NCBI GenBank assembly: GCA_050015375.1
Contig: JBEKBN010000004.1
Coordinates: forward strand, 15,188-79,187
Direction: 5' to 3'
Source of the DNA: Minisyncoccia bacterium
Lineage (GTDB): Bacteria > Patescibacteriota > Minisyncoccia > 2-02-FULL-40-12 > IGHO2-01-FULL-4-A
Length of the DNA stretch: 64,000 bases
Position 1 is the stretch's first letter. Every line of letters begins with the position of its first letter. The notes under the pieces were generated by a model that made no database searches, was not told the origin of the DNA, and saw only the letters and a list, made by a program, of their open reading frames with translations. Shown here in pieces: positions 5,782-55,260 of this stretch. The translations under genes and the position numbers were made by a program.

Positions 5782-5918
5782 GTGATGTAGCACCTCCTTG
5801 TTTGGGTGTTGGAAAAGGGATTCCGGCGCCAGCTCCCGCAAGATGCTTGGCGAACCTTCCCGGAATCCCTCGCTCTTTTATCAGTTCGTTCATAGGACCC
5901 CCCCTCCTTTCATACCGC

Positions 5919-5953
5919 TCTCCGCCTACTCCGGAGAGCTCTTTTTATCTTGA
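5919..5953 (+). terminator. Rho-independent terminator for proS
   Basis: gctctccg-cctact-cggagagc is followed by tcttttt. Confidence 0.55.
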
Positions 5954-6023
5954 CATTATGAAGCCAACAGAGTTATTATCCCCGTAGTTCACGAACAACT
6001 AAATGAAGCAAAAGGAGGCAGAA

Positions 6024-6410
6024 ATGCCGAACGGGTACGATTATTCAAAGGAATACGGGCCGCATGATTATTCAGTGAGCCGTGATTGCAAATTTGGATG
6101 TGGATGTTTTGTGGCGTCTTCGAGCTCTCATGGACCGCTTGGATTAGATCCAATAGGCGGTGAATGCCCAGGCAACCCGAAAGATGGCATAAAAACCGGC
6201 TATGATTACGAAGTCGTAGCGGAGAGAAGAATTAGGAAGCTGGGATCAGATCTTTATAAAGCCGAAATGGAATTATCCAAGCTCCGGCACATCAAAACAA
6301 CTCCGAAAGCCAAACTCTTGGAAAGAGCCGAAACAGCCGAGGCGGATTTGAATCGATTTCATGATCTGATCGGCAAAGCAAAAGAATTCATGAATCAATT
6401 TCCCGAATAG
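6024..6410 (+). CDS. Hypothetical Cys-rich small protein
   Basis: The promoter is TTGACA-18-TATTAT at about 5951-5985, followed by an AAGGAGG SD and the start MPNGYDYSKEYGPHDY... An upstream in-frame ATG at 6003 lies inside the SD. The protein contains the motif CKFGCGC...GGECPGNP. Confidence 0.5.
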   Translation: MPNGYDYSKEYGPHDYSVSRDCKFGCGCFVASSSSHGPLGLDPIGGECPGNPKDGIKTGYDYEVVAERRIRKLGSDLYKAEMELSKLRHIKTTPKAKLLERAETAEADLNRFHDLIGKAKEFMNQFPE

Positions 6411-6426
6411 TTTCTTGATTGATACA

Positions 6427-6457
6427 AGCCAAAGCGAAAGCATTGGCTTTTTTGTTT
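6427..6457 (+). terminator. Rho-independent terminator
   Basis: agccaa-agcgaaagca-ttggct is followed by ttttttg. Confidence 0.6.
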
Positions 6458-6465
6458 CGAGAAAT

Positions 6466-6690
6466 CAGGGCACGCCAACCCCCCTCTAAGAAATCCGCGA
6501 TAAGCATTCTGGTAACAAATCGGGAGCGACCGAGCTGTAATCAGCAAGGGTAGCGCGGAGCGAATAGCGGGATACCCGACTCGGAAGGGTTAATACCCGC
6601 CCGCATGGTCGGGAGGGATTCCCGCGCACATGAGCGACCACGATTTGTCAGAATGCGTTCAGGATTTCGTGAGGAGGGGTTGGCGATATT
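6466..6690 (+). ncRNA. Candidate rod-like structured RNA (6S-like architecture), GC-rich, upstream of mreB
   Basis: The closing helix pairs 6473-6486 cgccaacccccctc with 6671-6685 gaggaggggttggcg. A second helix pairs 6507-6522 with 6641-6653. An internal bubble is flanked by direct gagcgacc repeats, followed by the helix gcgcgg/ccgcgc and the apical hairpin gggt-taat-accc. The element is markedly GC-rich compared with its surroundings. Strand and identity are uncertain. Confidence 0.3.
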
Positions 6691-6732
6691 AATCTTTGAT
6701 TGTGAATTGATATTCTGCTATCCTGAATAGTC

Positions 6733-7782
6733 ATGTTCGGCAAACTCTTCAATTTTTGGTTCAAGGACATCGGCATTGATCTTGGCACGGCCAATACTTT
6801 GGTTTATGTCCGCGGCAAAGGCATCATCATCAACGAACCCTCCATCGTCGCCGTCAATCAAAAAACCGGCCAGATCCTCGCCATTGGTCAAGAAGCCAGA
6901 AAAATGATCGGCCGGACACCCGGCTACATCACCGTTACCCGGCCGCTTGTCGCCGGCGTGGTTTCGGATTTCGAAGTCACCGAGCAAATGATAAAATATT
7001 TCATTGACCGTGCCCACGAGAAATCATTTTCATTTTTTCCAAGACCCAGGGTCGTGGTCGGCATACCAGCCGGAGTTACCGAAGTCGAAAAACGAGCCGT
7101 GGAAGATGCGACCTACAACGCCGGCGCCAGAGAGGTCTATCTTATCGAAGAACCAATGGCGGCGGCTTTGGGCGCTCGGCTACCGATCCAGGAAGCGGCG
7201 GCAAATCTCATTGCCGATATCGGCGGCGGCACGACCGATGTAGCCGTGATTTCCATGGGCGGCGTGGTGGCTTCGCGATCATTGCGGGTTGCCGGCGACA
7301 AAATGACCGAAGATATCAGCCAATATATAAGGGAAGAGCACAATATGCTCATTGGCGATTCAACCGCTGAAAATATCAAATTAACCGTCGGTTCGGCCTA
7401 TCCGCTCGAAGAAGAATTATTCATGCAAGTTCGGGGCCGAGATATGGTCACAGGTTTGCCCAAAGAAATTACCGTCGGTTCGGAAGAAATAAGAAAGGCG
7501 ATGCACCGCTCTATCCGAGCGATAATGATAGCTATCCGAAGCACCATCGAAGAAACGCCGCCCGAACTCATTGCCGATCTTTTGAACCGGAGCATTTTCA
7601 TAACTGGCGGCGGAAGTTTGCTCCGAGGCATGGATGAACTCATCAGCCACGAGACGAAATTACCGGTCAAGATCGTTGACGACCCGCTGACTTCGGTTGT
7701 TCGGGGTTGCGGCCTGGTTCTTGAGCACATTGACACCCTGAAGTCGGTTTTGGTCTGGACTCCGAAGGAAGCGTACATCTGA
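6733..7782 (+). CDS. mreB: Rod shape-determining protein MreB (actin-like ATPase)
   Basis: DIGIDLGTANT, phosphate-1 and phosphate-2 motifs, and the DIGGGTTD adenosine motif are present. The length is 349 aa. Confidence 0.9.
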   Translation: MFGKLFNFWFKDIGIDLGTANTLVYVRGKGIIINEPSIVAVNQKTGQILAIGQEARKMIGRTPGYITVTRPLVAGVVSDFEVTEQMIKYFIDRAHEKSFSFFPRPRVVVGIPAGVTEVEKRAVEDATYNAGAREVYLIEEPMAAALGARLPIQEAAANLIADIGGGTTDVAVISMGGVVASRSLRVAGDKMTEDISQYIREEHNMLIGDSTAENIKLTVGSAYPLEEELFMQVRGRDMVTGLPKEITVGSEEIRKAMHRSIRAIMIAIRSTIEETPPELIADLLNRSIFITGGGSLLRGMDELISHETKLPVKIVDDPLTSVVRGCGLVLEHIDTLKSVLVWTPKEAYI

Positions 7783-7834
7783 ATAAAATTTTCAATTTTT
7801 AATTTTCAATTTTCAAACTGGGGGCGGGAAATAT

Positions 7835-8632
7835 ATGGGGAGAAATAATTTTAAAAAATATTCCATCATTGTTTTTGTTATAGCGGTTGTTTATTTGGGC
7901 AATCGTTTTTTGTTTAAGAATTATTTGCAAGATCTTGTTTACACCATTGCCCGCGGACCGGGAACATTTTTTTCCCAAAAATTCGAAAAAGTATCTCAAT
8001 ACGGCAAAGCCCTGTTCGGGCGCTCGGCGATCATCAGCGAAGATGAAGAATTAAAAAAAGAAAATCTGGCATTATCGGGCCAACTGTCAACTCTTGGATC
8101 GGTGGAACGGGAAAATGACGCTCTGCGGAGCCAACTCGGCGTATCGGCCAGAAAAAACCAGCAATTCGTTTTGGCGAATATTTTCAGCGTTGATCGGAGC
8201 GGATTGTCCTCGACCATCATGATAGACAAAGGCGCCCGGGACGGCATTAAAAGATCAATGGCCGTCATCGCCGGAGGAAATGTTTTAGCCGGAATCGTCG
8301 GTGAGGTTTTTGACGATCACTCCAAAGTGATCCTTTTGGATGACCCGCGTTCATCGGTCAGCGTTCGGATCGGCGGCCAGGGGGTTATCGGCAATGCCAG
8401 AGGTATCGCATCCCAAAACGGCAAAGTCGTCCTCGATCTCGTTACCGATACCGATCAGGTTCGGGAGGGAGATCTGGTCGTGACCAGCGGTTTGGACAAT
8501 GTTTCCGAGTCGCTTCTTGTGGGCAGGGTTGATAAGGTCGAGCTCAAAGGCGGCAATCTGTTCAAAAATGTCGAGGCAAACATGTTGTTCGACCTGTCGT
8601 TGGGTTCAGATCTTTTTGTCATCTTGAATTAA
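7835..8632 (+). CDS. mreC: Rod shape-determining protein MreC
   Basis: An N-terminal TM segment and a coiled coil (LKKENLALSGQL...ENDALRSQL) precede a C-terminal beta-rich domain. The gene lies directly downstream of mreB. Confidence 0.7.
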   Translation: MGRNNFKKYSIIVFVIAVVYLGNRFLFKNYLQDLVYTIARGPGTFFSQKFEKVSQYGKALFGRSAIISEDEELKKENLALSGQLSTLGSVERENDALRSQLGVSARKNQQFVLANIFSVDRSGLSSTIMIDKGARDGIKRSMAVIAGGNVLAGIVGEVFDDHSKVILLDDPRSSVSVRIGGQGVIGNARGIASQNGKVVLDLVTDTDQVREGDLVVTSGLDNVSESLLVGRVDKVELKGGNLFKNVEANMLFDLSLGSDLFVILN

Positions 8633-8633
8633 A

Positions 8634-9098: not shown

Positions 9099-10993
9099 TA
9101 CCCGACAAATACAGAATAAAAAGGATCGAAAATGACGAACTCAAACCGGAAGAAACGCTGGCCGATTCTTTGAGCGACCTCTCACCGATCGAAACGCCCA
9201 TCAGCCGGAATATTTTCGGTTTGGTCTATATTTTGATCGTTCTGGGTTGTTCTTTTTTGATCTTCAAGGCCTTTCAATTGCAGATCATTAGAGGCGGTAA
9301 TTTTGTGGCCGCCATCGAAAAAAATACTTCTTCGGAGTATTCCGCGCCGGCTTTGCGGGGGATCATTTACGACGCCGATTCAAAACCGCTGGTGGAAAAT
9401 ATTCCGATCTTCGACTTGGTGGTGGTGAATGCGGAATTGCCGAAAGTTCAGGCGAACCTGGACAAAACCATATCCGACCTGAGTCCGGTGATAAGTGTTT
9501 TCAAAGACGACCTCGATAAAATATTGGACGAGAACAAAGAATCGGCTTTTTTCTTTTTGAAAAAAGGTCTTTCGAAAGAAGAAATGGCCAAAGTTAACCT
9601 GTTGGGTTTAAAAGGTATTTATGTCATCGCCGATTCGGAACGGCAGTATCTTGGCGGTAATTCGTTTTCCGACCTTTTAGGTTACACATCCAGAGTCAGT
9701 CAGGACAACATGGATCAGGACAATTATTATCTTCCGACCGATAAGATCGGCAAATTGGGCCTTGAACAATATTATGAGGATGATCTTCGGGGAGAACACC
9801 GAAATATAACATTGAACAGCACGGCCAGCGGAACCGCCAGTGATAATTCCGACCTTCAAACCCAGCCCGGCGATAATTTGTATCTGAACATTGACAGCGC
9901 CATGCAGAAACAACTTTATCAAACAATTCTAAATGTTATTGCCCCAGCCGGCTTGTCGCGGGCGGCGGCAATCGTTCAGGATCCGAAAACCGGCGCCGTG
10001 CTGGCCTTGGTCAGTTTACCCTCCTTCGATTCGAATATTTTTGAAAATCCGTCGGAAGGCGAGAACGGCTCGAAGATCACGGATATTTTGGGAGACAAAA
10101 ACCAACCGTTGTTCGACAGGGTGGTCAGCGGTCGTTACAGTTCGGGTTCGACCATCAAGCCATTATTGGCCATGGCCGGTCTCAAGGAAGGCGTGGTCAC
10201 GCCGGAAACGAAGGTTGACGCTGAAGGCAGTATTTCGGTCAGGAGTAAATACGATCCGAGCGTGGTCTATACATTCAAGGACTGGAAAGTTCACGGCATT
10301 GTCGATCTGCGACAGGCCATCGCCAATTCGGTGGATGTCTATTTTTACTCTTTGGGCGGCGGTTACGGCAATATCAGCGGTTTGGGCGACGAAAAAATTA
10401 TCAGCTATTTTCGCCAGATGCTCATGGACAAACAAATGGGGATAGACCTGCCGGGCGAAAATACCGGATTTGTGCCGGACGAGGCCTGGAAACTTAAGAC
10501 CACGGGCACCCCCTGGTATATCGGAGATACTTACAATATCTCTATCGGCCAAGGAGGCATGGGCGTGACGCCGTTGTGGTTGAATACCTATGTCGGCTCG
10601 ATCGCCAATGGCGGGACAATGATGAAACCGTTCGTGGTTAAAGAAATAAAAGACAACAATGGTAAAGTCATCCAGGAAAACCAGCCCCAGGTTCTGGAAC
10701 AAATTCCTTTCGACCCAAAAACCATCCAAGTCGTGAAAGAGGGGATGCGGCTGGCGGTTACCGACGGCACGGCACGACTGCTGAACGATCTACCCCAGCC
10801 GGTGGCGGCAAAGACCGGCACGGCCCAGATCACCGGCACCGGTTACAATTCTTTGTTTATCACCTACGGCCCCTATGATAATCCCCAGATTTCGATGACA
10901 ATTTTGGTTGAGAATGTTTTGAACGAGGGCTATGCCATAAGAATTGCCCATGATTTTTATCAGTGGTATTTCGCGAATTTGTCCAAGAACTAG
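9095..10993 (+). CDS. mrdA: Penicillin-binding protein 2 (peptidoglycan D,D-transpeptidase MrdA)
   Basis: The SxxK motif (SGSTIKP), an SVD motif and a KTGTA motif are present, with an N-terminal TM and a PBP dimerisation domain. It is operonic with mreBCD. Confidence 0.85.
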   Translation: MIPDKYRIKRIENDELKPEETLADSLSDLSPIETPISRNIFGLVYILIVLGCSFLIFKAFQLQIIRGGNFVAAIEKNTSSEYSAPALRGIIYDADSKPLVENIPIFDLVVVNAELPKVQANLDKTISDLSPVISVFKDDLDKILDENKESAFFFLKKGLSKEEMAKVNLLGLKGIYVIADSERQYLGGNSFSDLLGYTSRVSQDNMDQDNYYLPTDKIGKLGLEQYYEDDLRGEHRNITLNSTASGTASDNSDLQTQPGDNLYLNIDSAMQKQLYQTILNVIAPAGLSRAAAIVQDPKTGAVLALVSLPSFDSNIFENPSEGENGSKITDILGDKNQPLFDRVVSGRYSSGSTIKPLLAMAGLKEGVVTPETKVDAEGSISVRSKYDPSVVYTFKDWKVHGIVDLRQAIANSVDVYFYSLGGGYGNISGLGDEKIISYFRQMLMDKQMGIDLPGENTGFVPDEAWKLKTTGTPWYIGDTYNISIGQGGMGVTPLWLNTYVGSIANGGTMMKPFVVKEIKDNNGKVIQENQPQVLEQIPFDPKTIQVVKEGMRLAVTDGTARLLNDLPQPVAAKTGTAQITGTGYNSLFITYGPYDNPQISMTILVENVLNEGYAIRIAHDFYQWYFANLSKN

Positions 10994-11029
10994 CACGAAG
11001 TGCGCAGTGATTGGGTAACAAATTGAGCG

Positions 11030-11176
11030 TCCCTCACTTTCTGTGGAAATCACACATATTCTTTGAGATAACACTTATTTTTCTTCAAAGCGTAATTCTC
11101 ACAGAAAGTGAGGGATAAGCAACTGTTTCCAATCGAGCTTCATGATTACACTCGCTCTCTTGGACATTTGCTTATC
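11030..11176. repeat. Two interlocked inverted-repeat pairs in the mrdA-greA intergenic region
   Basis: IR1 pairs ccctcactttctgtg (11030-11044) with cacagaaagtgaggg (11099-11113). IR2 pairs ggataagcaa (11112-11121) with ttgcttatcc (11167-11176). Confidence 0.7.
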
Positions 11177-11242
11177 CACAGTTTGTTGAAACAAATTTTG
11201 CGGTTGTGATATAATCTTTACTTATTATTTAACTAATCTACC

Positions 11243-11698
11243 ATGGCACAGTATTTCAGCCCCGAGGGTTTGGAAAAATTGAAAAAAGAATTGGAAGACA
11301 GAAAAGGCGAGATTCGTAACGAAATAACCCGGAAAATTTTGACAGCCAAGGAACTAGGTGACTTATCGGAAAACGCCGAATACGCCGAGGCCAAAGAATC
11401 GCAGAGTTTTAATGAAGGCAGGATATCAGAGCTGGAGGAAACCATCAAAGAAGCTGTTGTTATCGGAGCCAACGGCCGGCATGACGCGGTCATAGTCGGC
11501 TCGACGGTAAAATTAAAATCTCCTCATGGAGATCATAAATTCACCATTGTCGGACCGGCGGAGTCCGATCCGGCGAGGGGTTTCATCTCGAACGAATCGC
11601 CGCTAGGTAGCGCCTTCATTGGGCATAAAAAAGGGGAAGAAGTTGAAGTCAAAACCCCGAGCGGGATTGTGAAATACAAGATCGTGGAAATATCATAG
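11243..11698 (+). CDS. greA: Transcription elongation factor GreA
   Basis: An N-terminal coiled coil with the acidic tip LGDLSENAEY is followed by a C-terminal FKBP-like domain. The promoter TTGAAA-18-TGnTATAAT lies upstream at about 11188-11220. Confidence 0.9.
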   Translation: MAQYFSPEGLEKLKKELEDRKGEIRNEITRKILTAKELGDLSENAEYAEAKESQSFNEGRISELEETIKEAVVIGANGRHDAVIVGSTVKLKSPHGDHKFTIVGPAESDPARGFISNESPLGSAFIGHKKGEEVEVKTPSGIVKYKIVEIS

Positions 11699-11700
11699 CC

Positions 11701-11907
11701 GCGAGTCCGGAAATCCCGGACCAGGCTCACCGGATTGCTTTCCGGGGACTTAGGAAATCTCAGCGAGATTTCCGTCATCCGGTTGTCGGTTGCCGTCGCT
11801 GATTGACGGCTTTTTGATTTCACAAAAAGCCGTCAATCAGACCCTGCCGACGGCACCGACAACGGCCCCTGAAAGCAATCCGGTTCGCAGGGATTTCCGA
11901 ACTCGCT
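11701..11907. repeat. Near-perfect palindrome of about 207 nt, arms about 95 nt, centred on a bidirectional terminator hairpin
   Basis: The centre is gattgacggcttttt-gatttcac-aaaaagccgtcaatc (11801-11838). Outer arms pair 11783-11798 with 11848-11862, 11729-11748 with 11866-11885, and 11707-11717 with 11891-11900. Confidence 0.7.
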
Positions 11908-12090
11908 CCAGTTCTTCGCGGACATTTTGAGAGGCAATCACCTCGCCTAATCGCCGGAATATTATTGAAGTTCGGAAATGACCAGCTTCGATATTTTTGG
12001 TCTGCGGCTCAAATGGTGGAAATGAGCCGCAGGAATTAAAAAGCCCACCGATATTCTGGTGGGCGCGGAATAGAAGGCGGGATATGTAAT

Positions 12091-12378: not shown

Positions 12379-12500
12379 ACTTTCCCTTTCCTTGTCTGCA
12401 GCGCTCACCCCTATTGGTAGCCTGCATATATAATGATAGCATAATGAGATTTGCTTGTCAAGTAGATGTGTTTTTGTCGGAATTTTGATATGATTTTACT

Positions 12501-13995: not shown

Positions 13996-14044
13996 CTCTC
14001 GGATATTGCCTCTCGGGACATCGATTTCCCCAGCGAGAGAATCG

Positions 14045-14095
14045 CCGTTCCGGATTTCGGGCTCACAGAAATGAGCGCCCTCGAGACAACATCCC
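14045..14095 (+). repeat. Dispersed intergenic repeat, about 50 bp (copy 1), immediately upstream of serS
   Basis: ttccggatttcgggctcacagaaatgagcgccctcgagacaac recurs in inverted orientation at 42268-42322 with about two mismatches. It contains the hairpin gctca-cagaaa-tgagc. Confidence 0.65.
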
Positions 14096-14112
14096 CTCGC
14101 TATTTCTTAATC

Positions 14113-15408
14113 ATGTTAGACATTAAATTTATCCGACAAAATCTAGAGCAAGTGAAAAAAGCCGCCAGAGACAAGGGGATCAATGTTGATGTTGATCAGC
14201 TTTTGGATGTGGATGAAAAACGGCGGCAATTAATCGCTAAAAGCGAATCGGTCAAAGCCGAGCAGAAAAAAACAGAAGACCGCGAAAAAGCCAGAAACCT
14301 GAAATTTGAATTCAAAAAGCTGGAGGACGAATTGGCGGAAATCGAAATTGAATTCAAAAAATTGATGGTCCAAATTCCAACCGTGCCGTCGCCGGACACG
14401 CCGATCGGAAAAGGCCCCGACGACAATGTTGAAATTTATCATTGGGGAGAAATTCCGAAGTTTTCCAGCAAAGACGGATTTGAACCCAAAAACCACATTG
14501 AACTAGCCGAATCACTGGATCTTATTGATTTTGACAGAGGAACCAAGGTCGGCGGCTTCAGGGGTTATTATTTAAAAAACGAGGGCGCAATGTTGGCCAT
14601 GGCTTTAATGATGTTCGCGATGGAGAAAATGATCTCCAAAGGATACAAATTAATAATTCCGCCGACACTGGTCAAGGGATTTGCTCTTTTTGGCAGTGGA
14701 TATTTCAAAGGGCTTGAATATGATCCCGAAGTTGATGAGATCTATGAAGTGGCTACCCGCGACAAAGAAAGTTCCGGAGAAAAAAGCAAGGAACGGAAAT
14801 TCTTGATCGGCACGGCCGAACCGGCGCTTCTGGCGTATTATGCCGACGAAATCATCAAGGAAGAGGACTTGCCGATAAAACTTGTCGGCTTCAGCCAGTG
14901 CTATCGGAGCGAGATCGGCAGTTATGGCAAAGATACGAAAGGTTTGTATCGGGTCCATGAATTCATGAAAGTTGAACAGGTTATCATCTCTAAGGCCGAT
15001 ATTGCAGAAAGCGACAAGCTCCAGCAAGAAATGGTGGAAATCGTCCGTGAGATGCATCAGGAACTTGGTTTGCCGTTCAGGCAAATTCAAATGTGTGCTG
15101 GAGAAATGAGTGCCGGTAAATACAAGGCCTTTGACACCGAGGCCTGGTTGCCTGCGTCAAACCGCTGGGCCGAGACCGGCTCAGCCAGCAATTTTCTTGA
15201 CTGGCAAGCCCGTCGGCTAAATGTCCGCTACGCCGACAAACACGGCGAAAAAAAATTTGCTTATCTTTTGAACAACACCGCTTTGCCGACGCCACGACCG
15301 CTCATGGCTATTTTGGAAAATTTCCAGACCAAAGAGGGAACGGTGAAAATCCCGAAGGTTTTACAAAAATACATGCTCGGGAAAAAAGAGATTCACCCTG
15401 TTAAATAA
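14113..15408 (+). CDS. serS: Seryl-tRNA synthetase
   Basis: An N-terminal coiled-coil arm (MLDIKFIRQNLE...) and a class II core are present. An upstream in-frame ATG at 14071 would add 14 aa that do not look like SerRS. Confidence 0.9.
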   Translation: MLDIKFIRQNLEQVKKAARDKGINVDVDQLLDVDEKRRQLIAKSESVKAEQKKTEDREKARNLKFEFKKLEDELAEIEIEFKKLMVQIPTVPSPDTPIGKGPDDNVEIYHWGEIPKFSSKDGFEPKNHIELAESLDLIDFDRGTKVGGFRGYYLKNEGAMLAMALMMFAMEKMISKGYKLIIPPTLVKGFALFGSGYFKGLEYDPEVDEIYEVATRDKESSGEKSKERKFLIGTAEPALLAYYADEIIKEEDLPIKLVGFSQCYRSEIGSYGKDTKGLYRVHEFMKVEQVIISKADIAESDKLQQEMVEIVREMHQELGLPFRQIQMCAGEMSAGKYKAFDTEAWLPASNRWAETGSASNFLDWQARRLNVRYADKHGEKKFAYLLNNTALPTPRPLMAILENFQTKEGTVKIPKVLQKYMLGKKEIHPVK

Positions 15409-15420: not shown

Positions 15421-15678
15421 ATGGTATATTTTGTGTACGTTCTTCAATCTATTCGTGATAAAAAGTTTTATACGGGATATACAAAGAATTTAAAGTTAAG
15501 ATTTGAGCAACACCAAAAAGGATTGGTCAACTCAACAAAAAATAGGAGACCATTAAAATTGATATATTTTGAAGGGTGTCTAAATCAACAGGATGCTACC
15601 CACAGGGAAAAGTATTTAAAAACATATTTAGGTAAATTTTTTTTGAGAAATAGGCTCAAATCTTATTTAACAGGGTAA
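15421..15678 (+). CDS. GIY-YIG nuclease family small protein
   Basis: VYFVYVLQS...KFYTGYTKNLKLRFEQH is a GIY-YIG motif. The gene is markedly AT-rich and wedged between the serS stop and the ftsQ-like ATG. Its TAA stop directly abuts the next ATG. Confidence 0.7.
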   Translation: MVYFVYVLQSIRDKKFYTGYTKNLKLRFEQHQKGLVNSTKNRRPLKLIYFEGCLNQQDATHREKYLKTYLGKFFLRNRLKSYLTG

Positions 15679-16542
15679 ATGGCCGTCGATTACAATCAAC
15701 ATCTTAAAACCCTCCGGCGGAAACAATTCAAGAAAACCTCGCGCAAATTCTATCTGATCTCGGGAGGGTTTTTTTTGATTTTAGCCGGCCTGGTCTATGT
15801 TTTGTTCTTCGCGAAATTGTTTGATATCCGAGCGGTCAAGGTCAGCGCTACGGAAAATATTTCCGCCGACGAGATCCAAAAACTGGCCGAGGCCTGGCTG
15901 AATGGAAGGTATTTCGGTATCGAGCGTCGCAGGAATTATCTATTTTTCCAACCTCAAAAAATATCAGCCATCTTGACCGGCAATATTTTTGCGGTCAGCT
16001 CGGTGTCGGTCACAAGAACGAATCACGACCTTGAAATTAATGTCAGCGAGAGAAAACCGATCGGCGTCTGGTGTCTGACAAAGCAAAACCAGTGTTTCTT
16101 TTTCGACGATGATGGTATCGCGTTTCGGGAGACCAACCCGAGCGAGGGTTTCATTTATTTGAATGTCGCCGATGATCGCGACCGGACTGTTGATTTGGGA
16201 CAGCAAGTTGAATCAAAAGAATGGCTCGACCGGATAATTTCGGTCAAAGACCTTTTGAATCGAAACCAATTTGAGGCGGCGCAATTTGTTTTACCCGAAA
16301 AAACTTTTGACGAGTTTGATGTTGAAACGATTCCCCAAACCATTCCTCAAACGAACAATATCGCCAGCGGTCAAAATCCGGTGATTCCGAAAAGTTTCAA
16401 TATCATGTTAAGCACGACAACCGATTACGAACGCCAACTCACCGACTTCATTGACGTTTATAATAAAAAAATGACTCCCGATGAGAGGAGTAATTTGCAA
16501 TACGCGGATCTGCGAGTCGCCGACAGGATTTATTACAAATAA
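15679..16542 (+). CDS. ftsQ: Cell division protein FtsQ/DivIB-like (POTRA domain)
   Basis: A short cytoplasmic N-terminus is followed by a single TM, a POTRA-like segment and a beta domain. Confidence 0.5.
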   Translation: MAVDYNQHLKTLRRKQFKKTSRKFYLISGGFFLILAGLVYVLFFAKLFDIRAVKVSATENISADEIQKLAEAWLNGRYFGIERRRNYLFFQPQKISAILTGNIFAVSSVSVTRTNHDLEINVSERKPIGVWCLTKQNQCFFFDDDGIAFRETNPSEGFIYLNVADDRDRTVDLGQQVESKEWLDRIISVKDLLNRNQFEAAQFVLPEKTFDEFDVETIPQTIPQTNNIASGQNPVIPKSFNIMLSTTTDYERQLTDFIDVYNKKMTPDERSNLQYADLRVADRIYYK

Positions 16543-28160: not shown

Positions 28161-28910
28161 ATGATAAAAAAGGAGGAGGAAAAATTGGAAGCAATAAGAT
28201 TGAGAAAGCTGGGTTTATCTTATTCAGAGATATTGACAAAAGTACCAGTTGCAAAGTCGTCCCTAGGGTTATGGCTTAAATCGGTTGGTCTTTCAAAGAA
28301 AATAAAATATAATCTAACAGAAAAGAAAAGACTTGCAGGATTAAGAGGAGCCCAAAAAAGACACGAACAAAGAATTTCTTTAACAAAAAAGATACTTTAT
28401 AATGCTGAAAACGAAATCAAATATATTTCTAAGAGAGAGCTATGGCTTATCGGCGTATGCTTATATTGGGCCGAAGGTTCTAAGGAGAAAGAAAGACATC
28501 CAGGATCAAATGTTCAATTTTCAAATTCCGATCCAAAAATGATTCTTCTCTTTCTTAAATGGCTCGACGAAACGTGCAAAATCCCGCAAAACATGATATA
28601 TTTTGATATATACATTCACGAAAGCCATAGGAAAAGAGTTGATTTAGTCAAAGAATTCTGGCGCAATTGTACCGGCTACCCAAAAGAACAATTTGATCAC
28701 GTATATTACAAGAAGAATAAAATAAGGACAAAAAGAATAAATATTGGTGATTCTTATTATGGGGTTGTTAAGGTAAGAGTCAGGAGAAGTTCGGCTTTTC
28801 TTAGACGTATTGCTGGATGGATAGAAGGTGTTTGCGATGTAACTTTGCCGGGTGGTGTATTTGGTAACACGCCTGCCTTTGAAGCAGGAGACACTAGGTT
28901 CGAACCCTAG
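28161..28910 (+). CDS. AT-rich HTH-domain hypothetical protein whose 3' end reads into tRNA-Gln
   Basis: The N-terminal HTH-like segment LEAIRLRKLGLSYSEILTKV is followed by a basic region and a WLIGVCLYWAEGSKEK segment of uncertain LAGLIDADG-like character. The last 21 codons lie inside the tRNA (28846 onward). An alternative TTG start at 28186 follows an AGGAGGAGG SD. Confidence 0.4.
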   Translation: MIKKEEEKLEAIRLRKLGLSYSEILTKVPVAKSSLGLWLKSVGLSKKIKYNLTEKKRLAGLRGAQKRHEQRISLTKKILYNAENEIKYISKRELWLIGVCLYWAEGSKEKERHPGSNVQFSNSDPKMILLFLKWLDETCKIPQNMIYFDIYIHESHRKRVDLVKEFWRNCTGYPKEQFDHVYYKKNKIRTKRINIGDSYYGVVKVRVRRSSAFLRRIAGWIEGVCDVTLPGGVFGNTPAFEAGDTRFEP

Positions 28911-30042: not shown

Positions 30043-30321
30043 ATGTATTTCGTCTATCTTTTAAAGTGCGGTGACGGGTCAATATATATCGGCATTACAA
30101 CCAGTGTTGAGCGGAGATTTCAGGAACATAAGTCCGGCAAAGGCGGGGCATACACCAGAGCAAAGAAAGCCGTTAAGATCTTATATTCTGAAAAATTCAG
30201 AACCAGAAGTAAAGCGTCAAAGCGGGAGGCGGAAATCAAAAATTGGCCGAGACGAGAAAAATTAGATTTAATCAAACATGGCAGATTTCAAACAACTACA
30301 AAAAATAATTTACAAAAATAA
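30043..30321 (+). CDS. GIY-YIG nuclease family protein (YhbQ/UPF0213-like)
   Basis: MYFVYLLKCGDGSIYIGITTSVERRFQEHKSGKG is a canonical GIY-YIG motif. Its 3' end overlaps the next gene by 44 nt. Confidence 0.75.
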   Translation: MYFVYLLKCGDGSIYIGITTSVERRFQEHKSGKGGAYTRAKKAVKILYSEKFRTRSKASKREAEIKNWPRREKLDLIKHGRFQTTTKNNLQK

Positions 30322-33183: not shown

Positions 33184-33208
33184 GATGCAGATGGTGTATA
33201 ATCGAGCT

Positions 33209-33373
33209 ATGAGCAAAGGTTCATCCGGAGCCCTTTACGGACTGGGGTTTCTCGGGGCGGCGATCTATTATATCCGGCACGCCGATACATTTTGGGTAGG
33301 CGTACTGGGGATAATCAAGGCCATCATTTGGCCGGCCGTGCTCGTCTATAAGTTGTTCGCGTTTTTCAAATAA
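33209..33373 (+). CDS. Small membrane protein (55 aa)
   Basis: TGTATAAT-N6-ATG precedes MSKGSSGALYGLGFLGAAIYYI..., which has two predicted TM helices. The ORF track extends the frame to 33176. Confidence 0.45.
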   Translation: MSKGSSGALYGLGFLGAAIYYIRHADTFWVGVLGIIKAIIWPAVLVYKLFAFFK

Positions 33374-33380
33374 TTCCGCG

Positions 33381-35948: not shown

Positions 35949-36129
35949 AATTCATTGATCCGTGGGCAAGTTCATTACTGTCGGTTTGATCCTAGGGACA
36001 ACTTTGGGCGGGCTGATACCTTCGCTTTGGGGCGCGGACTATTTTTCTGTTTCGGGAATTATTTTTTCAACGCTCGGCGGCGCCGCCGGCATCTGGGTCG
36101 GTTACAAGTTAGCGCAATGAGAGAAAAAG

Positions 36130-40675: not shown

Positions 40676-40685
40676 TTTTCCGCTC

Positions 40686-41429
40686 ATGGAGACCGAGCAA
40701 AATCAAGAAAATTTAAGCCGAAAAGAAAGGATCGAATTGCGGCGGCAGGAAAAACGGTCCGGCGAGAACGCCGGCGGGGGAAAAACCGGCCGGCGTGTTT
40801 TGATCTGGCTGGTTGTTTTAATATTAGTCGGCGGAGGAATTTATGGCGCAGTCAAATTGGCTCAAAAACCGAATCCACAAAATAACACCACTGGGGCATT
40901 GAGGGTGCCGGTTGGTGCTTCCGATTGGGTGGAAGGCAATAAAAACTCCAAGACAGTTCTCGTCGAATACAGCGATTACGAATGTCCGGCTTGCGGCCTT
41001 TTTTATCCGTACGTGAAAGCGATCGTCGGCGCTAATCAGGACAAGATCGAATTTGTTGCCCGGAATTTTCCATTGGCCCAGCATACGGACGCGGAAATCG
41101 CCGCCCAAGCCGCCGAAGCCGCCGGAAAACAAGGCAAGTTTTGGGAGATGCACGACAAATTGTTCGAAACCCAAGCCGACTGGTCTGAAAAATCGAACGC
41201 CCGTGATATCATCATCGGTTACGCCCAAGAGCTTGGCTTGAATGTCGCCCAATTCAAAAATGATATTGATTCCCAGGATATTAAAACTAAGATCGCCAAT
41301 GATTATCAAGGCGGAATTAATTCTGGCATCGATGCCACGCCGACATTTTTCCTGAACGGCCAAAAAATGAATCCAACCAGTTTCGATGATTTCACCAATA
41401 TTATCCAACAAGCCATCAATGGACAATGA
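40686..41429 (+). CDS. DsbA-family thiol:disulfide oxidoreductase (membrane-anchored)
   Basis: The CPAC active site sits in a thioredoxin fold (VLVEYSDYECPACGLFYP). An N-terminal TM is present. Confidence 0.8.
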   Translation: METEQNQENLSRKERIELRRQEKRSGENAGGGKTGRRVLIWLVVLILVGGGIYGAVKLAQKPNPQNNTTGALRVPVGASDWVEGNKNSKTVLVEYSDYECPACGLFYPYVKAIVGANQDKIEFVARNFPLAQHTDAEIAAQAAEAAGKQGKFWEMHDKLFETQADWSEKSNARDIIIGYAQELGLNVAQFKNDIDSQDIKTKIANDYQGGINSGIDATPTFFLNGQKMNPTSFDDFTNIIQQAINGQ

Positions 41430-41457
41430 TGAATCCAGCGCCGGGCGAGGCCCGACG

Positions 41458-41898
41458 ATGCCGTCGGGCCTCGCCCAGCTAACCTCCCTCTTTTTTTCAA
41501 TCTTTAGTTTTGTCGGCCTTTTAGATTCCGTATATCTGACCGCCAAACATTTCACCGGCGCGCCAGTGCCCTGCACGCTTTTTGGCAATTGCGACAAAGT
41601 TCTCACGAGTTCCTATTCTGTCATTTTCGGCGTTCCGGTCCCGCTTTGGGGAATTATTTATTATTTTATATTTCTCGTTGCGACTGTCGCGTATTACGAC
41701 TCGGGAAAAACGATATTTTTGAAATACCTTTCGTATTTATCCGTTATCGGCCTAGCCGCCTCAGCTTATTTTGTTTCTGTCCAGTTGTTTTTAATTAAAT
41801 CAATTTGCGAATATTGCCTCCTCTCCGCCGTCACTTCCACCTTGCTTTTTATCTCTGGAATGGTATATTTATCCAAGCACAAAAAACCAGCTGTTTAA
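41458..41898 (+). CDS. Vitamin K epoxide reductase (VKOR) family protein
   Basis: Loop cysteines PCTLFGNCDK and the CEYC (CxxC) active site lie within a 4-5 TM core. It is paired with DsbA as in DsbB-lacking bacteria. An alternative in-frame start at 41386 would overlap dsbA by 44 nt. Confidence 0.7.
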   Translation: MPSGLAQLTSLFFSIFSFVGLLDSVYLTAKHFTGAPVPCTLFGNCDKVLTSSYSVIFGVPVPLWGIIYYFIFLVATVAYYDSGKTIFLKYLSYLSVIGLAASAYFVSVQLFLIKSICEYCLLSAVTSTLLFISGMVYLSKHKKPAV

Positions 41899-42226: not shown

Positions 42227-42267
42227 CAAACCGCGCAATATGCGGTTTTTTTTGATTAATTTATTTG

Positions 42268-42322
42268 AGCGTACCGGCCGTTGTCTCGAGGGCGCTCATT
42301 TCTGTGAGCCCGATATCCGGAA
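42268..42322 (-). repeat. Dispersed intergenic repeat, about 50 bp (copy 2, inverted relative to copy 1)
   Basis: gttgtctcgagggcgctcatttctgtgagcccgatatccggaa is the reverse complement of 14048-14090. Confidence 0.65.
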
Positions 42323-42578
42323 TGGTGAGGATGAGGGCGTGATTGCATGGTCTGGGAACATCGGAAAGTTGTATAATGTTCTTCCTGACAACTTTCTGAT
42401 GTTCCCAGAATCCACAGAAATGAGCGAGTCAAAAAACTCGCTGGGTTTTTTGACGTCCCGAGAGGCAATGGGCGACACAGCAAATGTTTAAATATTTCAA
42501 GATTTAATAAATTGAGTGGCTCGCGCACTTGTGAATAACCCCATCGCTATTCACCAAGCGTATGCTATAATATACTTT

Positions 42579-47269: not shown

Positions 47270-47278
47270 CGTTTAGCG

Positions 47279-47477
47279 CCAGCCCTTGCCTCTTCTCGCT
47301 TAGTGCTCGGCTTCGCCTCGGAACTCATTTCGGCTGGGTTTGTTACCTTGGGTTCTAAGTGACCCTCACCGTCGCGGGCTATTCAGCGACGGGTATTGAC
47401 CTAGAACCCAAGACAAATCCGCCTCAATTTCGTCCCTCGGCTCGCCTGCGCGGCCACTCGAAGAGGCAAGGGCTGGC
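47279..47477. repeat. GC-rich rod-like structured intergenic element (about 200 nt), candidate ncRNA or MITE/REP-like repeat
   Basis: The perfect 18-bp closing helix pairs gccagcccttgcctcttc (47279-47296) with gaagaggcaagggctggc (47460-47477). An internal long helix pairs ggtttgttaccttgggttctag with ctagaacccaagacaaatcc. The apical hairpin is ccgtcgc-gggctattcag-gcgacgg. Confidence 0.35.
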
Positions 47478-47659
47478 TCGGACTATTATTGAAGGTCTAC
47501 AATCTTAAGGGTGCTCAGAGAGACCGGGACTCGCAGGGATTTTGCGGAAAATCAAACCTTTCAAAGATGGTATTTAAATGTAAACGCCCCCGAGACAACA
47601 CCCGCCACATTAAATCCGATTGACGCAATGGAGAAAGTGAATAAATTTCTAAGGGATAA

Positions 47660-49682: not shown

Positions 49683-49733
49683 AAATTGTGGATTTATGGC
49701 TAGGATAATTTTTTCGTCTGTGATATAGTTAAA

Positions 49734-51050: not shown

Positions 51051-51053
51051 TAC

Positions 51054-52328: not shown

Positions 52329-52351
52329 CCGGCACGCGAACGCGGGACTGA

Positions 52352-53014
52352 TCATTTGAGAGCGACCCGCAATATCAAGGCGAAAGCAATGATGAAACCG
52401 ATAATGGCAAAAGAGAGGTAAATGATCGGCCATAATCTGATGCGGGTTTTGGAAACGAGAGTGAAACGATGTTCGAAATCGTCGATGAAAGTATCGACTT
52501 TTTTGTCCAAACGCTCGGACGGAGTAACAACCGCGTTTTTGTCCGATCTTTGATCGGCAAATAATCTGATGAGATCATAGCGGCTGACGATGCCGACCAA
52601 TCTTTTGTCTTTGTCAATGACCGGGATCGGATTGACGCGGTGGTGATGGGCGAAAAGATCGGCCACTTCTTGGATCCAGGCGTCTTCCTCGACGGACAAA
52701 GGATCGGTGTTCATGATGTCGCTGACTTTCAGTGTCAATAAATTGCGAAGGTCGTCCTTGATCAAACTTTTATCTTTTTTGTAAAACCCGATATTACCCA
52801 AGATATTTATCAGTGTCGGCAAATGAACCGCGTTGCCTTGAGAGATAAGATCATATTCGGTAACGATGCCGATCAAGACGTTTTCTTTATTGACGACCGG
52901 CAGGCCGTTGAAGTTATGATCGGACAAAACCTTGGCGGCATAAACAACCGCGTCCTCTGGTTCGACGACTACAAGATTTTTGGTCATTATATCTTTGACC
53001 TTGAGATTTTCCAT
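52352..53014 (-). CDS. CBS-domain pair protein with C-terminal membrane segment
   Basis: Two tandem CBS motifs (VKDIMTKNLVVV...; VSDIMNTDPLSV...) are followed by one TM. Confidence 0.75.
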   Translation of the reverse strand: MENLKVKDIMTKNLVVVEPEDAVVYAAKVLSDHNFNGLPVVNKENVLIGIVTEYDLISQGNAVHLPTLINILGNIGFYKKDKSLIKDDLRNLLTLKVSDIMNTDPLSVEEDAWIQEVADLFAHHHRVNPIPVIDKDKRLVGIVSRYDLIRLFADQRSDKNAVVTPSERLDKKVDTFIDDFEHRFTLVSKTRIRLWPIIYLSFAIIGFIIAFALILRVALK

Positions 53015-53096
53015 CTATTACTATTTTACTTTGTATTTGTTAGTTCAACAAACAAATTGTCAACAACCGGGAAATTTTGTAGAATGTGAAATCAAG

Positions 53097-54182
53097 ATGA
53101 CCAGATCAAACATAAAAAAAACAGTCTATGTTGCTATGTCCGGAGGAGTTGACTCGTCTGTGGCAGTGGCAATTTTAAAAAAACAGAACTACAATGTAGT
53201 CGGCGTTTTCTTTAAGCCCTGGTCGCCGTCGGCGGATGTTAGTTATTGCAATTGGAAAGAGGACAGGGAGATGGCGATGCGGGTGGCATCGGTCTTGGGC
53301 ATAAAATTCAAAACCTGGGATTTCTCGAAAGAATATGGCGAAAAGGTTGTGAAATACATGATCGAATCCTACCGTGTCGGTTCAACCCCAAATCCCGACG
53401 TCATGTGTAACAAAGAAATAAAATTCGGCCTGTTTTTGAAAAAAGCGCTTTCTGAAGGGGCCGATATGATTGCTACCGGGCATTATGTACGAAAGGCAGA
53501 AATTAAAAAGCCATCAGCTATAAGCTATCGGCTATTAGCTGGTTTAGACGAAAACAAGGACCAGTCATATTTTCTCTGGGCGCTGACCCAGGAGCGATTG
53601 AAATATTGTCTATTTCCGGTGGGGGATTTAACGAAACCGGAAGTCAGAAAACTTGCAAAGAAGTTCGGTTTGCCGAATTACGACAAAAAAGACAGTCAGG
53701 GAGTTTGTTTTGTCGGTCAGCTTGATGTAAAAGAATTTTTGAAAAAATATATCAAACCGAAAACGGGGGATGTTATTTTACTTGAAACCGGAAAAGTTAT
53801 AGGCAAACACGATGGCGTCTATTATTACACCATCGGCCAAAGGCACGGACTTGATATCAAAACCGGCGGCGGCCCGTATTTTGTGGCGAAAAAGGATATT
53901 AAGAAAAATATTATTTTCGTAACCTGCGATCTGAAAAGCCAGGAATTGGCGAAAAAATATGCCGAGGTTACAAACACGAATTGGTTGAGAAATGATTTAA
54001 AAATTCCGCTTAATTGCCAAGTCAAAATCCGCTATCGAAATGTGTCCAATCCGGCAAAAATAAAAAAAGTCGGCAACAGATATTCAATTGAATTCAAAAA
54101 ACCGGTCAAGGCCATCACCCCCGGCCAGTCGGCAGTTTTCTACAAAGCCGCCGAACTCCTCGGCGGCGGGGTCATTTTATAG
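53097..54182 (+). CDS. mnmA: tRNA 2-thiouridine(34) synthase MnmA
   Basis: The PP-loop VAMSGGVDSSV is present, with catalytic Cys and a C-terminal beta barrel. The promoter is TTGTCA-17-TAGAAT at 53058-53086. The ORF track starts it earlier, at 52980. Confidence 0.9.
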   Translation: MTRSNIKKTVYVAMSGGVDSSVAVAILKKQNYNVVGVFFKPWSPSADVSYCNWKEDREMAMRVASVLGIKFKTWDFSKEYGEKVVKYMIESYRVGSTPNPDVMCNKEIKFGLFLKKALSEGADMIATGHYVRKAEIKKPSAISYRLLAGLDENKDQSYFLWALTQERLKYCLFPVGDLTKPEVRKLAKKFGLPNYDKKDSQGVCFVGQLDVKEFLKKYIKPKTGDVILLETGKVIGKHDGVYYYTIGQRHGLDIKTGGGPYFVAKKDIKKNIIFVTCDLKSQELAKKYAEVTNTNWLRNDLKIPLNCQVKIRYRNVSNPAKIKKVGNRYSIEFKKPVKAITPGQSAVFYKAAELLGGGVIL

Positions 54183-54440
54183 CTCGCCCCTCGCTTCCAA
54201 CCAGGCTCACCCTTGCCTGTTTTCCGGGACGCTCCGACTCTATGCGGCCGGCGGCCGCCTCATTGTCCCTTCACATGTTACGGGACAATCATTGAAGTCT
54301 CCGCTCATCGTCTCGCCTCGCTCGTTGTGGCATAATTTCCCACCCGCTTCGCTCTGCGGAAATTACGCCACAACCCCTTGCCCGCTCGGCTTCGATGGTG
54401 CCCTCAAAACAGGCAGGGGTTCGCAGAAAGCGAGGGGCTC
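54183..54440. repeat. GC-rich structured intergenic element (about 258 nt) directly after mnmA
   Basis: The closing helix pairs gcccctcgcttc (54186-54197) with gaagcgaggggc (54427-54438), continuing with cccttgcctgtttt paired to aaaacaggcagggg. The internal hairpins are gtccc-ttcacatgttac-gggac and gttgtggcataatttcc...ggaaattacgccacaac. It shares the short motifs cccttgcct and gctcggcttcg with element 47279-47477, and accaggctcacc with 11716-11727. Confidence 0.35.
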
Positions 54441-54449
54441 AAAAAAAGA

Positions 54450-54482
54450 AAAACCCCGCTTAAAATAACGGGGTTAAAATAG
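54450..54482 (-). terminator. Rho-independent terminator (strong on minus strand)
   Basis: On the minus strand: aaccccgttattttaagcggggttttt ctttttttg. Confidence 0.65.
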
Positions 54483-54503
54483 AAACGGATGGGTTGGTAT
54501 CAT

Positions 54504-54977
54504 TTACCTTTTACCCAGACTCGGTAACCCGGCATTTATTAATCCAGGAATAGATTCACTCGAGAAATCATTGAACAAAATCGCATGGAATCTTTCTGGA
54601 TCATTTTTCACCAGTTCCAATACTTGTTTAAAACCAGACTCATATATTTCCATAAGCTTACTGCCACTCTTGATTTGTCGTCTCATTTCCCAAAGTGGCA
54701 GGAGAATTTCAGCAGGATTTTCATCTTTTGAACATCTTGAACCCACAAATCTATCTATCTCGATTTCCCTTGTGGGATCGACGACCAGCCACCACTCTGT
54801 GAGCCCGCCTCGAGGACCCCTCTCAAGAAAACAGGCAATTCTGAACTGGCGATACTGGAAAAAAAACCATATCGAACCCAATCCCTTCTTTGAAGGAAGT
54901 ACTCGTTCTTTGGGTGAATTTTGCCAATATCTATTTAGTTTTTCAAGGAGCGTAAACACTCTATGGACGTCGGGCAT
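54504..54977 (-). CDS. Hypothetical protein (157 aa)
   Basis: A canonical TTGACA-17-TATATA promoter and an AGGAGG SD lie on the minus strand at 54985-55025. No motif is recognised. Confidence 0.5.
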   Translation of the reverse strand: MPDVHRVFTLLEKLNRYWQNSPKERVLPSKKGLGSIWFFFQYRQFRIACFLERGPRGGLTEWWLVVDPTREIEIDRFVGSRCSKDENPAEILLPLWEMRRQIKSGSKLMEIYESGFKQVLELVKNDPERFHAILFNDFSSESIPGLINAGLPSLGKR

Positions 54978-55059
54978 AATATCCCTCCTGCGTATACTAT
55001 ATATAATATGATAGTATATGTCAATTTTTGCTAACCCAGGAGTGATTAAGCGTCCCCTC

Positions 55060-55260
55060 GGCTTTTTCGAGAGTACCGTCGAATCCGCAGTGAAAAATCT
55101 TTGTAATCAAAGTTTTTCACGTCCGAGCAAGGTGTCCCTCCGCAGGCCTGCGGAGGGACGAGGACGGATTCGACGATAAGCGAGAGATATCATATATAGA
55201 GCCGAACATGTGAGGCGAGATGAAGCGCCCGCTGGGCGCGTAGAGTCGAAGCGTCTCGAG
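55060..55260. repeat. GC-rich multi-hairpin intergenic element
   Basis: cgtcgaatccg (55077-55087) pairs with cggattcgacg (55164-55174). There is a perfect 24-bp palindrome tccctccgcaggcctgcggaggga (55135-55158). Further hairpins are gtgaaaaatctttg-taat-caaagtttttcac (55090-55120) and gcgcccgctgggcgcg (55224-55239). Confidence 0.4.

Follow-up and report, generated by a model that had tools for sequence, protein, structure and literature searches.

A family of interspersed GC-rich palindromes in a Yanofskybacteria-like Patescibacterium and its likeness to mobile hairpin repeats

Introduction

Genomes of Patescibacteria (the candidate phyla radiation, CPR) are regarded as streamlined and repeat-poor, and the question raised by the stretch analysed here is why several of its intergenic spaces are occupied by long, GC-rich palindromes. 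The stretch, referred to below as the window, comprises 64,000 nucleotides (45% GC) of contig JBEKBN010000004.1 (assembly GCA_050015375.1, positions 15,188 to 79,187). The genes beside the palindromes are housekeeping genes (proS, mreBCD, PBP2, greA, those of aminoacyl-tRNA synthetases, murJ and mnmA). The closest named relatives of these flanking genes are in metagenome-assembled genomes of Candidatus Yanofskybacteria / Paceibacteria, at 50-60% protein identity, by which measure the host is classed as a Yanofskybacteria-like Patescibacterium. A preliminary description, made from the letters of the window, had grouped six loci as one family and offered three options for it, namely a repeat family like miniature inverted-repeat transposable elements (MITEs) or repetitive extragenic palindromes (REPs), a set of stable small RNAs, or sites for protein binding or recombination; the alternative to all three was isolated palindromes associated with terminators. 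As set out below, a new, lineage-specific and interspersed family of palindromes is the best-supported conclusion, and its best reading, on balance probably correct, is mobile palindromic DNA resembling REPINs and Rickettsia palindromic elements (RPEs) and often co-transcribed as 3′ untranslated region (UTR).

The window's own strain is also present in ENA ERZ27250144, Logan SRR7028199 and JGI 3300038424, the last of which holds in addition a sister strain (loci L084 and L086) whose genes have 92-97% nucleotide identity to those of the window. Also compared were a relative at 58% PBP2 identity (L085), a second relative (L087), a locus of a 33%-GC CPR genome (L028), contigs of the Ga0187878 population (L123 among them), which is counted within the lineage and whose relatedness to the window organism is not established, and further element-bearing loci (L089, L107 and L114).

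Folding and relatedness of the loci

All six loci are present, and the spaces that they occupy are GC-rich as had been claimed (50-56% GC in the gaps with elements, against 22-46% in most other gaps). A few other gaps are at 48-56%, i.e. 13996-14070 (56%, part of the element termed E8 below), 33184-33380, 35949-36129, 40676-40823 and 55643-55699. The second and third of these were considered as elements and rejected; they appear to encode unannotated small hydrophobic membrane proteins, one of which is the 55-aa peptide MSKGSSGALYGLGFLGAAIYYIRHADTFWVGVLGIIKAIIWPAVLVYKLFAFFK.

Folding with RNA parameters was compared with that of 200 dinucleotide-preserving shuffles per locus, a control that the preliminary description had called for. 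The five long loci fold far better than their shuffles, none of which matched the real energy at any locus, with z-scores of -7.8 for 6466-6690 (E2), -13.2 for 11695-11912 (E3), -7.4 for 47272-47483 (E4), -7.2 for 54180-54445 (E5) and -5.6 for 55050-55270 (E6). With DNA parameters, z is -14.5 for E3 and -7.9 for E7, another element discussed below. An inverted-repeat scan recovered the closing stems previously quoted, including the perfect 18-bp stem 47278-47295/47460-47477. The shared short motifs are likewise present, CCAGGCTCAC being exact at 11721 and 54201, and GGTTCGCAG is common to 11882 and 54418. Direct repeats on both arms are borne out in E4 (CTCGGCT(T)CGCCT), where both copies in the sister strain have undergone the identical G-to-T change.

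The family tie goes well beyond a handful of common short motifs, given that E5, on the plus strand, is from end to end a homologue of E6 read as its reverse complement. BLAST gives 74% identity with compensatory changes, as in GCGGCC-GGC-GGCCGC versus GCGCCC-AGC-GGGCGC. This relationship was clear in the all-versus-all BLAST of the six loci, from which no other pair emerged, and joint MAFFT alignment of all types was uninformative. A common plan came instead from comparing folds side by side, which led to two members that had gone unlisted, E7 (42264-42485) and E8 (13996-14105). At least five of the original six loci are related; for E2 no relative is detectable.

Architecture and covariation

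The elements are long rods of 100-260 nt in which stems change freely while Watson-Crick pairing is kept. Read in the F orientation, defined by the plus strand of E5, the plan begins with a variable outer stem and, in some members, a loop with AACCWGGSCTC on the 5′ arm versus (C)TCGCR on the 3′ arm. Inward of this are a second stem, GGGAC, a side hairpin (HpC) with the loop CCAGCGA, then CTCAT, and a helix leading to at least one apical hairpin. The unpaired features fixed in sequence (GGGAC, the CCAGCGA heptaloop hairpin, CTCAT and sometimes AACCWGGSCTC/TCGCR) are always on the same arm. Conserved terminal repeats were not found; the outer stems differ from copy to copy, and what is conserved is internal and asymmetric. 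At least four types can be told apart by sequence, namely A (E3-like), B (E7/E8-like), C (E5/E6-like) and D (E4-like, without HpC).

Covariation is evident in HpC, whose 14 instances have at least eight different stem sequences around one loop. They show 36 double-sided cell changes, a count that none of 500 shuffles reaches, nor does any reach the covariation score, and the signal is lost when the register is slid. An alignment of nine B-type copies, E7 included, yields a consensus of 67 pairs, and at 35 of these there are compensatory changes. In this type the 15 bp of helix D (CGCTCATTTCTGTGG versus its complement) are invariant in sequence, as are the adjacent single-stranded segments, and in the outer stems, HpC and the 19-22-bp apical hairpin the sequence drifts and the pairing stays. 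That the B-type core might be coding was rejected, since the lengths of the indels that separate copies are not divisible by three. A promoter at the apical loop was also rejected, for the opposite (R) strand has TATAAT but no -35 box at workable spacing.

Copy number and distribution

The window holds 9-10 copies per 64 kb, about 2.7% of its length, and if this density were typical a genome would have on the order of 100; one more copy of the same strain, new to the list, lies upstream of the window at a distance of 10 kb. A covariance model of HpC (R1, with a cut-off of at least 24 bits) yields 22 matches, at 24-52 bits, in 200 kb of the window, sister strain, Ga0187878 and related contigs, and 2 weak matches only in 1.45 Mb of control sequence from other CPR and Bacillota loci. 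A metagenome scan with a 17-mer from the E7 core returned 39 matches, of which 7 are true members, six on separate Ga0187878 contigs and one from another sample. The relative at 58% PBP2 identity is without E1, E2, E3 and E8, and without the small orphan genes that adjoin them.

No family motifs were found in viral contigs, a phage collection gave no match, and no shared motifs were found across 80 mnmA loci of GTDB genomes. The Rfam scan suggested at the outset was run, and no element reaches the gathering threshold, at which a tRNA-Gln at 28846 is the only match in the whole window and its sole Rfam/tRNA feature. Permissive scans of the elements gave sub-threshold chance matches only, the families not matched including HEARO/omega-RNA, 6S RNA, Y RNA, ribozymes and group I/II introns. 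Literature searches found no description of such repeats in Patescibacteria.

Turnover between strains and dispersed copies

At four sites, two strains have different family types at the same position between genes that are collinear and nearly identical. Where the window has E2, the sister strain has an A-type element (L084 7415-7640) whose core is identical to that of E3 at 44 of 45 nt (L084 7531-7580) and whose outer stem and apex differ. The type 3′ of greA is A in the window and B in the sister; the B-type of the E7 site is represented in the sister by a hybrid re-using the P1 stem of E3; and 3′ of the RRF gene the window strain has a B-type and the sister a D-type paralogue of E4 (L084 1701-1887, 79% identity over 190 nt). 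Orientation is kept in the three swaps where it is determinable (four if E2 were in F orientation). At three other sites the member is kept, E4, E5 and E6 being 90-95% conserved between the two strains (95% for E4, in L086).

The gene order shared with the sister strain breaks off at 55265, within the outer arm of E6; the sister copy of E6 has its outer stem intact and follows a different gene, one for iPGM. Collinearity also breaks upstream of the GH15 gene (window 1-1630 versus L084 1-2568), where the window has a methyltransferase, an HD-domain open reading frame (ORF) and small ORFs, and the sister has a D-type element plus a 156-aa ORF after the RRF gene.

Near-identical copies are dispersed. 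Those in L107 and L114 (CCGTGGCG...CGCCACG), which come from one sample, share about 97% identity from end to end and have unrelated flanks, and no target-site duplication was found at either. Internally deleted copies are represented by E8 and L087 ~10246-10400, a deletion derivative ~90 nt long is present in a relative with 79% MurJ identity, and E9 has a deletion of ~190 nt relative to the sister strain. A different kind of location is illustrated by mnmA of L028 (~10385-10530), where a member of ~140 nt, with the CCAGCGA hairpin and a 16-bp outer stem, is in frame within a loop of variable length, adding ~34 residues and leaving the reading frame open without a stop codon. With swaps, deletions, a synteny break and orphan islands all marked by elements, they are likely drivers, or at least markers, of micro-evolution.

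Gene context and strandedness

In 15 of 21 members the F orientation is co-directional with the upstream gene and the element starts 0-25 nt past its stop codon. A TAG is within 3 nt of the 5′ foot in six of ten co-directional members, and in three is the stop codon itself. Five or six members (E6, E7, L084 7543, L086 1902, L086 17169 and L123 7112) are antisense to both neighbours or in promoter regions. No U-tract follows E3, E4, E5 or E7, so that these do not qualify as intrinsic terminators, and canonical terminators sit apart from elements, at ~6426-6452 and, on the minus strand, at 54445-54480.

Helices are ~98% Watson-Crick. The 1x1 mismatches within them comprise 13 that are G·U(T) on the F strand, 19 that are A·C (and hence G·U on the opposite strand) and 42 others; one-sided changes of the G-U type are rare relative to double changes in both the HpC and the B-type alignments, and both strands fold comparably well. 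Assigning a strand by its wobble pairs was rejected, 13 versus 19 not being significant. With no wobble excess on either strand, an RNA-type signature is absent, and it is as DNA that the palindromes are symmetric. A complication is that the plus strand of the window is both the G-rich strand and the one that carries most genes, which makes a cis-acting RNA and a strand-specific single-stranded DNA inseparable here. The positional bias fits a cis-acting 3′ UTR RNA and the survival of single-stranded DNA insertions just outside genes equally well.

Also of relevance to element boundaries is a 15-mer, GGA(A/C)TATTATTGAAG, downstream of E3 (11956-11970) and of E4 (47480-47494), with strings like it following members in L114 and L089. 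By chance ~0.13 matches to the 15-mer are expected. It may mark where the element really ends on the 3′ side, or be a promoter-like box.

Weighing the explanations

The first of the three options is favoured by the multiplicity and lineage restriction of the copies, the swaps between sister strains, the dispersed near-identical copies, the deletion derivatives and the copy within a coding sequence. A classical MITE or REP it is not, since target-site duplications and conserved terminal repeats are both lacking and conservation falls on internal, asymmetric parts. On the model preferred here, which is likened to REPINs, hairpin elements derived from IS200/IS605 and RPEs, the elements would be non-autonomous selfish DNA, propagated and exchanged as a folded single strand, with the fixed features acting as putative recognition and strand-selection signals for a candidate trans-acting enzyme. 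New copies would land mainly 0-25 nt from stop codons and point the same way as the upstream gene, presumably by target preference, and landing there would result in co-transcription as 3′ UTR hairpins, which may secondarily serve as terminators or stabilisers. The elements would also be hotspots for replacement, deletion, rearrangement and gain of accessory genes.

Several points weigh against this model. A cis-acting RNA would also show the co-directional, stop-codon-adjacent bias of 15 of 21 members, and replacement that preserves position and orientation would be expected just as well if every site required an element of this kind. No pair of empty and filled sites with clean junctions was recovered, and so insertion itself was not observed. 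Element cores are nearly identical between populations of unestablished relatedness, which implies strong constraint or recent horizontal transfer. The preliminary description had observed that neither a reverse transcriptase nor a transposase comes after any of the elements; this is true for every neighbouring gene checked, and among neighbours plus ~110 kb of annotated lineage sequence there is no transposase, reverse transcriptase, integrase or Nop-domain protein, nor, among the annotated genes of that sequence, any Y1/HUH, DDE or tyrosine recombinase. The one gene flanked by inverted copies, ORF157 (54504-54977, minus strand, between E5 and E6), was rejected as a transposase like those associated with REPs (RAYTs), having no HUH/HxH motif and no Pfam, NCBIfam, PHROG or PDB match.

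ORF157 is of some note apart from this. Its AlphaFold model is confident (pLDDT 86) and the structural neighbours are uninformative. A word-indexed search retrieved the sister-strain copy only, and an exhaustive search of 1.84 billion representatives retrieved 32 further relatives (E up to 1e-3), which define a sparse, unannotated family of ~155 aa with a conserved C-terminal SGGLPSLGKRR. No elements are visible beside a distant homologue on the one contig inspected for this.

A serious rival, if a less probable one, is a functional structured RNA. The elements would then be a family of cis-acting 3′ UTR modules of upstream genes, numerous because many genes need one. They could terminate transcription independently of a U-tract, hold up 3′ exonucleases or be places of processing, or recruit an RNA-binding protein whose signal is the CCAGCGA loop. 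Such a family would account for the location of most members just past a stop codon, and for greA, mnmA and the exonuclease gene having no canonical terminator other than the element; position and orientation are kept where strains carry different types, invariant loops with covarying stems are a classic signature of RNA families, and two of the few strain differences yield G·U on the F strand. It sits poorly with the five or six members that are antisense to both neighbours or in promoter regions, with the member inside the coding sequence of L028 mnmA, and with the lack of elements at the same genes in the relative at 58% PBP2 identity. Mismatches of the G·U kind are not in excess over A·C or the others, the near-complete Watson-Crick pairing is unusual for a selected RNA, the more stable RNA fold is usually on the antisense (R) strand, and no Rfam family is matched. 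Of the earlier option of stable small RNAs, then, the strong covariation of the helices stands, and the G·U signature and Rfam match are lacking. Judged by sequence alone, a structured RNA of the 3′ UTR may be hard to tell from a selfish hairpin repeat.

Binding by a protein, or recombination, would be in keeping with a heptaloop and an internal loop that do not vary, and this third option overlaps in part with mobile DNA. A specific version of it, structure-specific recombination sites in the style of integron attC that capture and exchange small gene cassettes, with the orphan genes as cargo, is considered quite unlikely. In its favour are the flanking of a 135-aa ORF by E1 and E2 and of ORF157 by E5 and E6 (the latter inverted), the adjacency of E3 to an Nfu-like gene, of E4 to those for MGMT and an 87-aa ORF and of E7 to a 104-aa ORF, the lack of these small genes in L085 and L087, the synteny break inside E6, and the confinement of the asymmetric conserved features to one arm, as with the extrahelical bases of attC. 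Yet the window and related loci lack arrays, an R′/R″ GTTRRRY core and any recombinase, intI-like or other; only two of five accessory genes have elements on both flanks, the majority of elements are between housekeeping genes without cargo, and the distant ORF157 homologue inspected is not visibly flanked by elements. As for unrelated, isolated palindromes associated with terminators and alike by chance, E2 has no relative and E1 is short, but the full-length homology of E5 and E6, the cores shared at unrelated loci and in other samples, the contrast in R1 matches between lineage and control, and the lack of U-tracts after elements in a window with canonical terminators elsewhere make this highly improbable, and for E3 to E8 refute it.

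There is also a more novel and unlikely reading, in which an undescribed Patescibacteria system for single-stranded nucleic acid acts on the family, or the host has recruited the family as a standard module of mRNA 3′ ends. A trans-acting enzyme may then read the CCAGCGA hairpin and the asymmetric internal loop on one arm to move or exchange elements, which may amount to a new chemistry of hairpin-guided transposition or recombination, without an HUH, DDE or integrase signature. Replacement that keeps position and orientation, together with near-identical cores, fits dedicated machinery better than it fits simple decay of selfish DNA. Irrespective of this, loops that do not vary, stems that covary, an asymmetry between strands and an in-frame insertion in a coding gene make up a natural data set on hairpin recognition.

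Relation to known systems

RPEs are palindromic repeats of 100-150 bp that occur in a reduced genome, both in intergenic positions and in frame within coding sequence, with no associated transposase. The single in-frame copy in an intact coding gene, L028 mnmA, resembles them. The phylum and presumably the sequences are unrelated, however, and most copies here abut stop codons, with one coding insertion seen; the side hairpin with an invariant loop is not known to have a counterpart in RPEs. With MITEs such as Correia/NEMIS, ERIC, RUP and BOX the elements share being short, non-autonomous, interspersed, co-transcribed and hairpin-forming, and differing in presence between strains. Unlike classical MITEs, they have termini that vary from copy to copy, they lack a target-site duplication, and no parent insertion sequence is known.

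The hairpin stems of REPINs drift by compensatory change around conserved recognition segments (PMC3116915). Likeness to the REPIN/RAYT system extends to the extragenic, GC-rich and multi-copy nature of the elements here, their single-strand hairpins with compensatory stem drift, the many extragenic copies with hairpin-keeping changes, the lack of target-site duplication, persistence within a lineage, and the position of ORF157 between two inverted copies, as is the case for RAYT genes. The differences are that the present elements are branched and 2-3 times longer, their 100-260 nt not being composed of two inverted units of 20-40 nt in a hairpin of 70-110 nt; that in place of two symmetric REP ends with GTAG they have internal, asymmetric GGGAC/CCAGCGA/CTCAT and no GTAG; and that no RAYT/Y1 gene is among the genes annotated in ~110 kb of the lineage, ORF157 being without an HUH motif.

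With attC they have in common a functional folded single strand, variable sequence with conserved structure, and asymmetric unpaired markers of the strand. They are much longer and lack the R″/L″-L′/R′ core (RYYYAAC / GTTRRRY), cassette arrays and an integrase. TIGR units, found in CPR bacteria and phages, are short and in tandem arrays beside a tas gene with a Nop domain (PMC12045711). Occurrence in CPR bacteria and variable palindromic stems flanking short conserved motifs are shared with TIGR-Tas arrays, an identification that was rejected because the present elements, of 100-260 nt, are scattered singly and have no Nop-domain protein among their annotated neighbours. Retron non-coding RNA was also rejected, no reverse transcriptase domain being present in any neighbouring gene.

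Elements of the window

E3 (11701-11906, plus strand, F) is of A-type and starts 2 nt past the greA stop codon. In order it has an outer stem, an asymmetric internal loop (GGACCAGGCTC/TCGCA), stem P1, GGGGAC, HpC (GGAAATCT-CAGCG-AGATTTCC, R1 score 39 bits), GTCAT and a long rod. E5 (54186-54438, plus, F; 28.1 bits) is of C-type and starts at the TAG stop codon of mnmA. Its first half consists of outer stem GCCCCTCGCTT, internal loop CCAACCAGGCTC/TCGCAGA, stem P1 and CCGGGAC, and its second of HpC GCGGCC-GGC-GGCCGC, CTCAT and a branched interior. The C-type E6 (55056-55266, F on the minus strand; 32.8 bits) has lost its outer 3′ arm at the synteny breakpoint, and with E5 it brackets the 157-aa orphan ORF in inverted orientation. 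E4 (47278-47477, plus, F), the D-type, is 9 nt past the stop of a PolB-like exonuclease gene; besides its 18-bp perfect closing stem it has the direct repeats on both arms and is without HpC. Shortly downstream, 47520-47545 on the plus strand (GACCGGGACTCGCAGGGATTTT) is a 3′ remnant of C-type that matches the 3′ end of a member at L107 12747-12768 at 22 of 22 nt.

E7, between the 104-aa orphan ORF and the glycogen synthase gene, is a full B-type with F on the minus strand (R1 49.9 bits; minimum free energy -121 kcal/mol for the plus strand). It is masked by ORFs 42240-42491 and 42256-42528 (83 and 90 aa, on opposite strands), which are artefacts of it, and gene callers have annotated spurious ORFs over elements in related contigs also, e.g. 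at L084 7337-7591. E8 (plus, F; 40.2 bits), an internally deleted B-type with TTGCCTCTCGGGAC, CCCAGCGAG and TTCCGGATTTCGGGCTCACAGAAATGAGCGCCCTCGAGACAAC in common with E7, begins at the TAG stop of the upstream aminoacyl-tRNA synthetase gene and extends into the mis-called start of serS; in L085, which lacks it, the gap is 16 nt. The mechanically derived serS ORF begins at an ATG inside E8 (GAAATGAGCGCCC, 14071-14113). The conserved N-terminus of SerRS, MLDIKFIR, begins at 14113, by which the true start is probably 14 codons downstream. The practical import is that elements break or confuse metagenome assemblies, create spurious ORFs (42240-42528) and cause starts to be mis-called (serS).

The standing of three further loci is less clear. 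E1 (5817-5869, plus), after proS, is probably a small, minor member. It is a small hairpin, GGGATTCCGG ... CCGGAATCCC, then CCCTCGCTC; its stems are kept in the sister strain with the interior replaced, and its 3′ CCCTCGCT tail is like the 3′ end of E8. The membership of E2 (6473-6685, plus) is uncertain. This is a GC-rich branched rod of 213 nt with the closing stem CGCCAACCCC.../...GGGGTTGGCG, located between the terminator of the 135-aa orphan ORF and the mreB promoter, and BLAST found no relative of it at any locus compared. E9 (10999-11232, plus), an AT-richer structured region, is related and of uncertain membership. It corresponds to the 5′ two-thirds of a closed structure of ~420 nt that is intact in the sister strain, the window copy having lost its 3′ arm together with an inner element whose stem is 16 bp long; the ~187 extra nt there (L084 12139-12325) include the complement of GATTGGGTAACAAATTGAGC.

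Other features of the window

Two free-standing ORFs for GIY-YIG nucleases, 15421-15678 and 30043-30321, encode 85 and 92 aa. The former is bracketed by 18-bp inverted repeats (15391-15408 and 15663-15680) that overlap the serS stop and its own stop, and with its absence from L085 it looks like a small mobile nuclease cassette. An AT-rich, loopless and perfect palindrome of 38 bp (19 + 19 bp) at 19262-19299, between two minus-strand genes for glycosyltransferases of the PMT family, is unrelated to the elements. An 18-bp near-perfect GC-rich hairpin at 41440-41479 (GCCGGGCGAGGCCCGACG ... CGTCGGGCCTCGCCCAGC), with a T-run 14 nt later, is probably a terminator and not a family member. Finally, 22251-24683 encodes an 810-aa DUF87/TrwB-like ATPase (of the type IV secretion/coupling type), a homologue of which, at 46-49% identity, is present in the element-bearing Ga0187878 population (L123 ~1000-2150).

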